From: Syntrophaceae bacterium
GTDB lineage: Bacteria > Desulfobacterota > Syntrophia > Syntrophales > PHBD01
DNA length: 64,000 bases
Assembly: GCA_013177825.1 (NCBI GenBank)
Contig: JABLXX010000005.1
Span: forward strand, 359,734-423,733
Direction of reading: 5' to 3'
Shown here: in pieces, positions 15,901 to 17,917 of the stretch
Layout of the letters: each line of letters begins with the position of its first letter
Numbering within the stretch: the stretch's first letter is position 1
Notes under the pieces: model-generated
What the model was told of the DNA's origin: nothing
Databases searched by the model: none
Seen by the model: the letters and a program-made list of their open reading frames with translations, nothing else
Program-made: the position numbers and the translations under genes

Positions 15901-16275
15901 CTAAAACAGCTTAAACGTTTTAATCGAATAGGTTGTGCTGACCCCCGTCATGTAATCACCAGTCGGCCCAACCGTGACGGTAGCCGTGTAAGTACCGGCT
16001 GTGCCCGCGATCGTTCCCTGAAAATCTCCGACGGTGACCGGAGACGTCGCGGTGAAACTGGTTGCGCTCGCCGTCCCCTGAAGCAGTTTCTGTCCATATT
16101 CCATCGACGCCGCGGAGATCAATCCCGAAAGCGCACCCGCAACGGCCTTGTTCTTGGCATCCGCCTGCATATCGAGGTATTTCGGAATGGCGATTGCCGC
16201 GAGAATTCCGAGAATAACCAGAACCGCGATGATTTCGATCAGCGTGAAGCCCTTCTGATTCCTTTTTTTCAGCAT
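15901..16275 (-). CDS. Type IV pilin / pseudopilin (MshA-like major pilin candidate)
   Basis: Class III signal peptide MLKKRNQKG|FTLIEIIAVLVILGILAAIAIP, with Glu at +5. The start was chosen at 16275, which has GAAGGAGGAAGAAAG upstream. The ORF track extends to 16329. The mature protein has no Cys and a Thr/Ser-rich C-terminal half. Confidence 0.85.
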   Translation of the reverse strand: MLKKRNQKGFTLIEIIAVLVILGILAAIAIPKYLDMQADAKNKAVAGALSGLISAASMEYGQKLLQGTASATSFTATSPVTVGDFQGTIAGTAGTYTATVTVGPTGDYMTGVSTTYSIKTFKLF

Positions 16276-16389
16276 CTTTCTTCCTCCTTCATGTTTTATA
16301 TTAGTAGGTTCATAGAATATCCCGCTCAAGTCTTTGACAGATGTGTGTCTTCACCTCCCTTCAGCAATAAATAAATTCTAGATGATTAT

Positions 16390-16406
16390 ATGCATACAAC
16401 ATGCCA
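16390..16406 (-). promoter_or_regulatory. Sigma54 (-24/-12) type promoter upstream of the pilin gene
   Basis: The minus strand reads cTGGCATgttgtaTGCAt. GG and GC are at the canonical 12-nt offset of the consensus TGGCACG-N4-TTGCW. The element lies ~115 nt upstream of the pilin ATG and next to a sigma54-activator gene. A TATAAT hexamer follows immediately, so a sigma70 alternative is not excluded. Confidence 0.55.
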
Positions 16407-16558
16407 GCATGGCACCATGCCCGCATTATCATCAAATAAGCAACAGGTCCCTCAAACTATAATGATCAACGGACATTCCGAAGCAAGTTTCAAAGAGGAT
16501 GAGCCCTTTTGAAGGCCGTTTATTCCCCTGCAAAGTCCCTGATTCAAAATCATGATGG

Positions 16559-17917
16559 TTAATCTACAAATTTTGTAGCTTTCTTTATCGCAGCTGCGTC
16601 TATGCCGTATTTCCGGATCCGGTGCCAAAGGCTCCTTTGGTTTATTCCCAGAATCTCTGCCGCCCGAACCTGAACCCCTCCCGCCCTGGTAATCGCTTCG
16701 ATGATCATCCCTTTTTCAATCTCACTGAGCCGGTCGTCAAGTGTATTTCCTTCTGTTACGGAAAATTCCTGCTTGAGTTGAATTCTGCTGCTCTCGCCTC
16801 TCACCTCGGGAGGCAGGTGCATCATTTCGATATCATTCTCTGCGATCACGGCCGCTCTTTCTATCACATTGCGTAACTCCCGCACGTTTCCCGGCCATGA
16901 ATAACCAAGTAGAACGTTCATCGCCTCCGGTGTAATCTTCTTTGCTTTTTCCTTTGCGTTCAGAAAATGATCCACCAGTGCTGGAATGTCTTCCTTGCGT
17001 TCACGTAATGCGGGGAGCCATATTGAAAATACGTTTACCCTATAAAAAAGATCTTCGCGGAAGGTTCCTTCCTTCACCATTTCACGCAGATCTTTGTTTG
17101 TAGCGGCTATAAAACGAACATCCACTTCGATCTGTTTCGTACCACCGACTCTCTCGAACACCCTCTCCTGCAGGACTCTCAGCAATTTTGCCTGCGTTGC
17201 CAGGGGCATGTCTCCTATTTCATCGAGGAAGATTGTTCCCCCATCAGCCAGTTCAAATTTACCTTTCTTTTGCGCGATTGCTCCCGTAAAAGATCCTTTC
17301 TCATGGCCGAATAGCTCACTTTCAAGAAGTCCTTCCGGAATTGCAACGCAATTTATAGTAATAAATGGTTTTTTGCTACGCGTGCTGTGTTCGAAGATTG
17401 CAGTTGCTACAAGCTCCTTTCCCGTTCCGCTCTCCCCGGAAATCATGACTGTTGATTCCGTCGGCGCCACTTTCACGATCTGGCCGAAGATCTCGCGTAT
17501 ACTCCTGCTCTGGCCGATGATTCCCGGAAATAGCTCTCTTGCTTCAACTTTTGATAGGATGTTTGTAACTTGAGACAGGACGTCTGAATATCGTTGAACT
17601 TCATCCCTCTGTTTTTTTTTCGGCACCAACTCGTTTTCAGAAGGTGGCGGCAGCAGATTGAGGCTTTCCGTCTTCTGGACGAATTCCTCGACCGGTTTCA
17701 GAATCGTCCACAAGATTAAAAATGCTACAACAAAAGTAACGGCCCCCAATGAAGCCGCCCAGATTAGTATCTGTGTAAAATCAACCGAACTCAGTTTCTG
17801 CTCATACGTGATGAGCCTGTATGTCACCAATATGCTTATGATCGGAATACCGCTGAATATCAAAGGAATGATGACATATAAGCTTACATTTATCCTTTTC
17901 CTCTGCTTGATCTGCAT
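16559..17917 (-). CDS. Sigma54-dependent transcriptional activator (bEBP) with N-terminal two-TM membrane anchor instead of a receiver domain
   Basis: The AAA+ core has GESGTGKE (Walker A), GSFTGA (GAFTGA variant) and IFLDEIGDM (Walker B). A C-terminal Fis-type HTH (AAEILGINQRSLWHRIRKYGI) is present. The N-terminal 75 aa form two hydrophobic helices. No phospho-acceptor receiver motif was seen. Confidence 0.85.
   Translation of the reverse strand: MQIKQRKRINVSLYVIIPLIFSGIPIISILVTYRLITYEQKLSSVDFTQILIWAASLGAVTFVVAFLILWTILKPVEEFVQKTESLNLLPPPSENELVPKKKQRDEVQRYSDVLSQVTNILSKVEARELFPGIIGQSRSIREIFGQIVKVAPTESTVMISGESGTGKELVATAIFEHSTRSKKPFITINCVAIPEGLLESELFGHEKGSFTGAIAQKKGKFELADGGTIFLDEIGDMPLATQAKLLRVLQERVFERVGGTKQIEVDVRFIAATNKDLREMVKEGTFREDLFYRVNVFSIWLPALRERKEDIPALVDHFLNAKEKAKKITPEAMNVLLGYSWPGNVRELRNVIERAAVIAENDIEMMHLPPEVRGESSRIQLKQEFSVTEGNTLDDRLSEIEKGMIIEAITRAGGVQVRAAEILGINQRSLWHRIRKYGIDAAAIKKATKFVD

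Follow-up and report, generated by a model that had tools for sequence, protein, structure and literature searches.

The DNA analysed here (the window) is a 64,000-nt stretch of contig JABLXX010000005.1 of a Syntrophaceae bacterium, positions 359,734–423,733, in which coordinates are counted from the first letter. It carries a type IV pilus cluster whose relevant genes all lie on the minus strand. In transcription order these are a PilM-like gene (25315–27231), two small open reading frames (ORFs), a secretin gene (22531–24237), an AAA_22 ATPase gene that adjoins the secretin gene (20898–22460), an MshE-type assembly ATPase gene with an MshEN domain (19182–20897) and the gene of a T2SSF/PilC platform protein (17942–19162); the named products were assigned with Pfam and NCBIfam. 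The next gene (16559–17917) begins after a 24-nt gap from the PilC stop codon and encodes a sigma-54 activator of 452 aa made up of two membrane helices, a linker, an AAA+ domain and a helix-turn-helix (HTH) domain. It is followed, after a spacer of 283 bp, by the major prepilin gene (15901–16275), whose 124-aa product matches Pfam N_methyl and TIGR02532 and has the leader MLKKRNQKG followed by FTLIE (N_methyl motif KG/FTLIE). The position of the activator gene, between pilC and pilA, is that of pilS-pilR in Geobacter. The evidence presented below suggests that the locus encodes a one-component, membrane-tethered version of PilR-type pilin control, a reading to which we assign a probability of roughly 0.72.

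Sigma-54/PilR control of pilin genes is well established (PMC2725144, PMC6058289). In Geobacter, PilR activates the immediately downstream pilA from an RpoN promoter (PMC2725144), and PilS senses PilA through its membrane segments (PMC6058289). The catalytic and DNA-binding domains of the activator of the window were examined with Pfam and by alignment with homologues. A Sigma54_activat AAA+ domain (PF00158) covers residues 133–299 (17021–17521, minus strand; E 1.3e-74) and is followed by AAA_lid_14 at residues 305–378 and a Fis-type HTH_8 domain at residues 397–437 (16607–16729, minus strand). Walker A is GESGTGKE at residues 161–168, and the sigma-54-contacting loop is GSFTGA at residues 208–213. 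Both GESGTGKE and the Walker B sequence FLDEIGD are invariant in the family alignment, and the loop is GAFTGA or GSFTGA in the homologues. GSFTGA also occurs in the Desulfovibrio vulgaris bacterial enhancer-binding proteins (bEBPs) DVU2394 and DVU3220, which have assigned target operons (PMC4641369). The closest PDB relatives of the AAA+ domain were FleQ, NifA, ZraR and NtrC1 (E 1e-88 to 1e-75). An NCBI entry that comes from a metagenome-assembled genome of Syntrophaceae matches the activator with 100% identity; homologues of the activator are named "sigma-54-dependent Fis family transcriptional regulator" in the databases, and no NCBIfam model reached its cutoff for the activator. These results confirm the first-pass annotation of this DNA, which had read the gene as a bEBP with intact GESGTGKE, GSFTGA and Fis-HTH motifs, and predict that activation would depend on rpoN and ATP.

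The spacer between the activator and pilin genes contains a sigma-54 promoter element. TGGCATgttgtATGCA (16391–16406, minus strand) is the sole exact match in the window to the -24/-12 pattern. In this element, TGGCATGTTGTATGCA, GG and GC have the canonical GG-N10-GC spacing, as in the sigma-54 consensus TGGCAC-N5-TTGCW, and its 3' end lies 115 nt from the pilin ATG (16275), where a sigma-54 promoter had been proposed in the first pass. The pattern TGGCAY-N6-TGCW occurred once in 64 kb on both strands, and shuffled sequences contained 0.29 matches per 64 kb, so that the chance of a match on the correct strand of a spacer of ~280 bp is ~1e-3. A looser pattern allowing one mismatch was uninformative, with 5 matches observed and 4.3 expected. 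Related loci were gathered by exact protein look-up and by a full-length-alignment scan of one genome per species. Where the pilin gene lies no more than 1.5 kb from the activator gene (32 loci), an equivalent GG-N10-GC element scoring at least 18/21 was found in 31 of the 32 spacers, compared with 5.5% of random 300-bp windows drawn from the same loci. Apart from this element the spacers cannot be aligned. GG, A5 and TG were each conserved in 31/31 elements and C15 in 30/31, giving the consensus TGGCAY-(G/A)-N4-x-TGC-(T/A). Transcription of the pilin gene is predicted to start ~11–12 nt past the element, near 16380, which would give a 5' untranslated region (UTR) of ~105 nt. A second sigma-54-like element, TGGTGCcatgcTGGCA (16402–16417, minus strand), overlaps the promoter 11 bp upstream and belongs to a short inverted repeat, GCATGG-TG-CCATGC.

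TATAAT comes directly after the ATGCA of the promoter and overlaps the -12 element. It was therefore considered, as in the first pass, whether the pilin gene is transcribed from a sigma-70 promoter while the sigma-54 motif is non-functional. No acceptable -35 sequence lies at 16–18 bp from TATAAT and there is no TGn extension. A sigma-70 scan of positions 15700–18100 returned 0 sites against 3.4 expected, and the other loci conserve GG-N10-GC but not TATAAT. The sigma-70 promoter was rejected on these grounds as very improbable.

The upstream regions of the loci were read side by side, and this revealed the consensus CTACAA-N3-TTGTAG. In the window this putative enhancer, or upstream activating sequence, is CTACAAAATTTGTAG (16564–16578), a perfect 15-bp palindrome within the last six codons of the activator gene. 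Its centre is 166 bp upstream of the -24 GG, and it is the only site with two or fewer mismatches in 64 kb. Of 31 loci, 22 have a palindrome of this quality in the 260 bp that precede the -24 element, with 0.015 expected per 260 bp. The palindromes are often paired, with a spacing of 21–22 or 32 bp; NtrC-type enhancers are likewise often paired. The distances between palindrome and promoter were phased with a period of 10.5–10.8 bp (Rayleigh R 0.62–0.64, p ~1e-4), a result that is supportive rather than proof since more than one period was tried and the loci, being related by phylogeny, are not independent samples. The HTH recognition helix (INQRSLWHRIKK) is nearly invariant in the alignment of 31 family sequences, which fits a shared DNA site. 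These features suggest that the palindrome is the binding site of the activator. The enhancer was not part of the first-pass annotation and was identified in this analysis. By sequence, then, the locus combines a Fis-type HTH, a predicted upstream enhancer site and a -24/-12 promoter, the arrangement of a bEBP and its target.

The palindrome extends into the end of the activator gene, either its final codons or its stop codon, in about ten loci (window 16559–16581; L002, L005, L008, L011, L013, L018, L019, L026 and L028), and its TAG is often the activator stop codon. Because of this overlap, the seemingly conserved protein tails LQNL-stop, QQKM-stop and TKFVD-stop are one DNA site read in different frames.

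Downstream of the promoter, the pilin gene has a Shine-Dalgarno sequence, AGGAGG, at 16283–16288 as read from the sequence, and an intrinsic terminator on its 3' side (15790–15822, minus strand) with a 13-bp stem, an AUAC loop and a UUUUUCUUU tail. The 131-nt stretch containing the terminator folds with -40.2 kcal/mol (z = -3.1). Given the ribosome-binding site and the stem and U-tract terminator, the pilin gene forms its own, one-gene transcription unit. The conservation of the promoter in 31/32 loci together with the conserved, phased palindromic enhancer makes it very probable that the pilin gene depends on sigma-54 and that the adjoining bEBP activates it. A weak terminator-like hairpin of 6 base pairs (16502–16517, minus strand) lies between the activator stop codon and the pilin promoter. 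An Rfam search of the pilin 5' UTR for riboswitches and known RNAs returned sub-threshold noise over the terminator only. The hairpin of the pilin terminator (15797–15820) is a perfect palindrome with an A-run on one side and a T-run on the other, and could stop transcription both ways; the next gene begins shortly after it, with its start codon at 15774.

The N-terminus of the activator differs from that of PilR. Kyte-Doolittle analysis with a 19-residue window gave peaks of 2.51 at residues 13–31 and 2.50 at residues 50–68, and none elsewhere in the protein. These peaks correspond to membrane helix 1 at about residues 13–33 (17819–17881, minus strand), with conserved S12, Y14, P18 and G23, and membrane helix 2 at about residues 50–72 (17702–17770, minus strand), which runs into a juxtamembrane helix extending to residue 85. 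All 31 aligned homologues have two hydrophobic segments, within the first 90 residues only. The first-pass annotation had described the first ~75 residues as two transmembrane helices in place of a receiver, and the hydropathy peaks and the 31/31 homologues bear this out. The loop between the helices is variable and spans ~7–20 residues. Across the 31 homologues the mean number of Lys/Arg residues is 3.4 before helix 1 and 1.6 in the loop, a distribution consistent with the positive-inside rule and an N-in/C-in topology. A cytoplasmic AAA+ domain requires the same topology. In the alignment P18, G23, P75, F79 and E84 are invariant and S12, Y14 and L73 nearly so, and helix 2 is followed by the juxtamembrane motif L-K/R-P-V-x-x-F. 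Residues 86–105 are variable, proline-rich and predicted to be disordered. They are followed, just before the AAA+ domain, by a conserved linker helix at residues 106–123 (VLxQVTxILSKVEA; 17549–17602, minus strand). AlphaFold2, run with the 31-sequence alignment, placed helices at residues 13–39, 47–85 and 106–123 and disorder at 86–105. The assignment of a two-helix hairpin draws on two sources, hydropathy and the AlphaFold2 helices.

A hydrophobic N-terminus could arise from misannotation if the true start codon lay downstream, a caveat that had been raised with the first description of the gene. The ATG at 17917 is not preceded by a strong Shine-Dalgarno sequence. Upstream of the AAA+ domain the only other candidate start codons, TTG or GTG, fall within the helices and also lack a Shine-Dalgarno sequence, and there is no in-frame ATG before M158. 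Conservation of residues 1–128 extends to more than 120 homologues, whose start positions agree. Each of three pairwise comparisons with homologues revealed 24–39 synonymous-only changes in codons 1–128, and this large number indicates purifying selection on the N-terminal reading frame. Finally, a profile of the N-terminus found 110 protein clusters, almost all of them matched at their own N-terminus. Conservation, synonymous changes and the agreement of start positions thus speak against an artefact; a downstream start was rejected as extremely improbable. The activator is supported as a genuine membrane-anchored protein that lacks a receiver domain and belongs to a recurrent family, as judged from these sequence comparisons.

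Residues 1–130 gave no match in Pfam or NCBIfam, whose models match only from about residue 86–133 onward. A PDB profile search with the N-terminal module returned only weak coiled-coil matches over residues 85–119. The motif L-K-P-V-x-x-F after helix 2 suggested a HAMP domain, a unit of about 50 residues with an AS1-connector-AS2 layout, and this candidate was rejected when PF00672 gave no match in 22 family members at E values up to 10. An hhalign comparison with four HAMP sequences aligned only 16 AS1-like columns over L-K-P-V-x-x-F with a probability of 1%.

How widely this architecture occurs was examined by homologue searches, as the first pass had recommended, and they revealed a recurrent family. 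More than 120 full-length homologues of 437–457 aa aligned over 97–100% of the query with 57–85% identity. When a profile of residues 1–126 was searched against 1.84 billion cluster representatives it matched the 110 proteins mentioned above and no others, and the full-length proteins among them are bEBPs of 427–480 aa. The gene order secretin, AAA_22, MshE, PilC, activator, pilin recurs in about 30 loci of other species. These include Syntrophales, Smithella, Desulfobacterales (Desulfatibacillum alkenivorans DSM 16219 with L032, Desulfosarcina) and, in the Desulfovibrionales, Salidesulfovibrio brasiliensis JCM 12178 with L026 and Solidesulfovibrio magneticus. As far as seen, the family is small, coherent and essentially confined to Thermodesulfobacteriota. 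The conservation of the gene cluster across this phylum, which emerges from the comparison of these loci, was absent from the first-pass annotation.

In one locus, L004 (JGI 3300001567, 9001–10985), the gene downstream of the activator encodes a hydrolase and there is no palindrome at the gene end. With neither a downstream pilin nor a gene-end palindrome, the target promoter of the L004 activator must be elsewhere. Three proteins, P0131 and P0134 (~955 aa) and P0136 (742 aa), combine the two-helix module and a sigma-54 AAA+ domain, without an HTH, with other domains. P0131 and P0134 have a complete MshEN + T2SSE pilus-assembly ATPase as fusion partner, whereas P0136 has HisKA + HATPase_c + receiver. 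The gene for P0131 (L085, 8001–10868) lies apart from any pilus cluster, beside a lone response-regulator gene.

The next-best genomic matches outside the family are ordinary regulators of the receiver-AAA+-HTH type. Two of these receiver-type relatives, in L056 and L061, are flanked by a pilB-like and a pilC-like gene and have a pilin gene close by. The tblastn alignments of the receiver-type relatives begin at query residues 97–116 and so take in helix 106–123, which makes this helix the equivalent of the receiver-to-AAA+ linker. The simplest history suggested by these comparisons is that of a PilR-like regulator whose receiver was swapped for a pair of membrane helices. The earlier proposal that a two-component input has been replaced at this locus fits the finding that the nearest relatives outside the family carry receivers and that some of them lie in pilB/pilC/pilin clusters.

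A PilR-type regulator is expected to have a receiver with a phospho-acceptor Asp and a cognate kinase, and the scan of the window found neither. Pfam detected no HisKA, HATPase_c or Response_reg domain among 49 ORFs of the window (48 of at least 150 aa plus the pilin), some of which had no Pfam match at all; the same absence of a histidine kinase gene had been noted at first reading. A search limited to the window leaves room for a kinase elsewhere in the genome. Since the activator has no receiver domain, however, such a kinase would have nothing to phosphorylate in the usual way.

We propose the following mechanism for one-component, membrane-tethered control. The last gene of an MSHA-like pilus assembly operon would encode a sigma-54 enhancer-binding protein in which two membrane helices of N-in/C-in topology, connected through a short periplasmic loop, take the place of the receiver. 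The helix pair would continue through the juxtamembrane helix and a flexible, proline-rich tether of ~20 residues into a coiled-coil-like linker helix and the AAA+ domain. The Fis-type HTH would bind the palindrome CTACAAAATTTGTAG at the 3' end of the activator's own gene. The bound activator would then oligomerise into a ring and, with energy from ATP, remodel the sigma-54 holoenzyme so that the closed complex at TGGCAT-N5-ATGCA, 166 bp further downstream, opens; the product would be a one-gene pilin transcript ending at the strong terminator. The helix pair, juxtamembrane helix and linker helix may together gate oligomerisation or ATPase activity, and the proline-rich tether may give the AAA+ domains enough freedom to assemble under the membrane. 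The enhancer is in cis, at the 3' end of the activator gene, and the activator would insert into the membrane while it is being translated, so that the target DNA would be near the membrane.

The loop between the helices is too short for a periplasmic ligand, and it is variable, suggesting that any signal is read inside or at the membrane. The likeliest signal would be either the unassembled pilin pool or the condition of the PilC platform, PilC being a candidate because it is co-expressed from the adjacent, tightly linked gene. By analogy with the sensing of PilA by PilS (PMC6058289), it is possible that the helices sense the pilin pool of the membrane or the state of the envelope, as the first pass had suggested. 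We propose only tentatively, and at less than even odds, that the module does the job of PilS by binding pilin or PilC in the bilayer and gating a six-subunit AAA+ ring on the nearby enhancer. If so, pilin would be autoregulated without phosphorylation and the sigma-54 open complex would form at the membrane surface.

Alternatively, the helices might be a mere tether. The activator would then be constitutive and controlled through its synthesis: once the assembly operon is on, the product of its last gene switches on pilin, and the tether may also keep the activator near the pilus machine or its own gene. bEBPs without a regulatory domain exist, for example PspF (PMC10084136). The N-terminal module has no recognisable sensory domain in Pfam, NCBIfam or the PDB, and the activator gene is tightly linked to the PilC gene, by the 24-nt gap in the window and by an overlap or a 5-nt gap in L004 and L003. 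On the other hand, a plain anchor would need neither the invariant Pro18 and Gly23 and conserved Ser12 and Tyr14 of the helices nor the invariant juxtamembrane motif P75-x3-F79-x4-E84. The coiled-coil-like linker helix has also been retained and is highly conserved; in activators of the NtrC1/DctD type, the receiver-to-AAA+ linker forms a repressive coiled coil. A mere tether is considered unlikely, with roughly one chance in five.

Another way to use a membrane anchor is to cut it. The membrane form would be inactive until cleavage in helix 2 or in the proline-rich linker frees a soluble AAA+-HTH activator. There are precedents: BtdS keeps the bEBP RedR2 inactive at the membrane until induction releases it (PMC10084136), and CadC has been reported to be activated by proteolytic cleavage (PMC11484849). 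Residues 86–105 of the linker are variable and predicted to be disordered, hence protease-accessible, and the membrane helices contain conserved Pro and Gly residues, which break helices. However, a conserved cleavage motif is missing from the linker, none of the loci examined has a protease gene linked to the cluster, and the position of the enhancer beside the activator's own gene in most loci favours tethered action in cis, an arrangement for which a soluble fragment would have no need. Proteolytic release is accordingly regarded as improbable, at odds somewhat below one in six.

Several observations weigh against a one-component, membrane-tethered regulator of the pilin gene. The AlphaFold2 model has low confidence (pLDDT 64, pTM 0.35), and the N-terminal module has no signalling domain recognisable in the Pfam, NCBIfam, PDB and HAMP tests. 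No pilin follows the activator in L004, and in L007 and L010 the pilin gene is 1.5–6 kb away. Nine of the 31 loci lack a palindrome with two or fewer mismatches, most of these having 3-mismatch sites. The window has one clear copy of the enhancer and several loci have two; ~21 bp downstream of the palindrome there is only a poor, register-shifted match, CATCATGATTTTGAA. The rpoN gene lies outside the 64-kb window. Assembly of a membrane-tethered AAA+ activator ring was not reported in the literature searched, in which subscription journals were thinly covered. Last, the evidence does not discriminate pilin sensing from simple anchoring.

The activator can be compared with several known systems. 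It shares with PilS-PilR of P. aeruginosa, G. sulfurreducens and Myxococcus the NtrC class, the Fis-type HTH and a gene immediately upstream of a pilin gene with a -24/-12 promoter, which it is predicted to activate. It differs in having no receiver and no kinase, and in that two membrane segments are fused to the activator where PilS has six. The cluster is also MSHA-like, with an MshE-type ATPase and AAA_22, rather than a classical pilBCD/pilMNOPQ cluster. With NtrC1/DctD-type bEBPs it shares a conserved helix directly before the AAA+ domain, aligned with the receiver-to-AAA+ linker. The dimerising receiver of those proteins is replaced by the membrane-helix pair, and the linker may likewise repress assembly here.

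In ToxR/CadC, as in the activator, one polypeptide spans the membrane and binds DNA, which raises the same question of how the target is found; membrane-integrated CadC locates its DNA site by diffusion and capture (PMC7888679, PMC6320335). ToxR/CadC proteins have an N-terminal winged helix, one membrane helix and a periplasmic sensor, and work with sigma-70. The activator, in contrast, has an N-terminal helix pair, a scant periplasmic part, C-terminal AAA+ and HTH domains, a predicted dependence on sigma-54 and a need to form a ring of about six subunits. Its architecture is thus reversed and unrelated. In RedR2-BtdS and PspF-PspA the activity of a sigma-54 activator is also linked to the inner membrane (PMC10084136), but there a soluble bEBP is held by a separate membrane protein, whereas here the anchor lies within the activator.

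In the literature searched, every described bEBP is soluble and controlled by a receiver, a ligand-binding domain or a partner protein. Surveys of bEBP architecture list cytoplasmic sensory domains only (e.g. PMC6615313, PMC4641369, PMC3162934), and wherever membrane control was found, a separate partner protein exerts it. No bEBP that is itself transmembrane or anchored in the membrane was found, although an earlier description is possible because subscription journals were thinly covered. The known part of the system is PilR-type sigma-54 control of pilin, and the new part is that the input is a one-component, integral-membrane bEBP. This raises the questions of how a ring-forming AAA+ motor assembles and reaches RNA polymerase while tethered to the membrane, and whether pilin feedback like that of PilS-PilR can do without phosphotransfer and sit in a single polypeptide. 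With one promoter, one palindrome and one 452-aa protein the system is compact, and it occurs in cultured strains, making it directly testable. It also offers a regulatory handle on the pili of syntrophs and sulfate reducers, which are discussed for interspecies electron transfer (bioRxiv 10.1101/479683).

With MSHA-type pili the cluster shares the MshEN ATPase with a cyclic di-GMP (c-di-GMP) motif and an AAA_22 (MshM/ExeA-like) ATPase beside the secretin. The assembly ATPase (19182–20897, minus strand) matches the MshE-related c-di-GMP-binding motif NF053729 with 63.6 bits (cutoff 38), suggesting that pilus assembly may be responsive to c-di-GMP, independently of pilin transcription. The secretin, unlike that of MSHA-type pili, fits the PilQ subfamily model (330 bits, cutoff 284) and not the MshL equivalog, for which its score of 106 is below the cutoff of 250. 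A set of minor pilins specific to msh systems was not identified in the window.

Beside the pilin gene are genes for several large polytopic membrane proteins whose C-termini carry TPR repeats (13768–15774, 12013–13650 and 9882–12041), and a PMT_2-like glycosyltransferase lies nearby (7953–9806). In at least nine further loci (L003, L007, L011, L013, L019, L020, L024, L031 and L032), relatives of the 668-aa TPR protein are likewise encoded alongside the pilin gene. These neighbours might point to glycosylation of the pilin or to another pilus-linked function. Elsewhere in the window, the ORF at 53337–54329 (minus strand) contains a CRISPR_Cas6 domain (E 5e-10).

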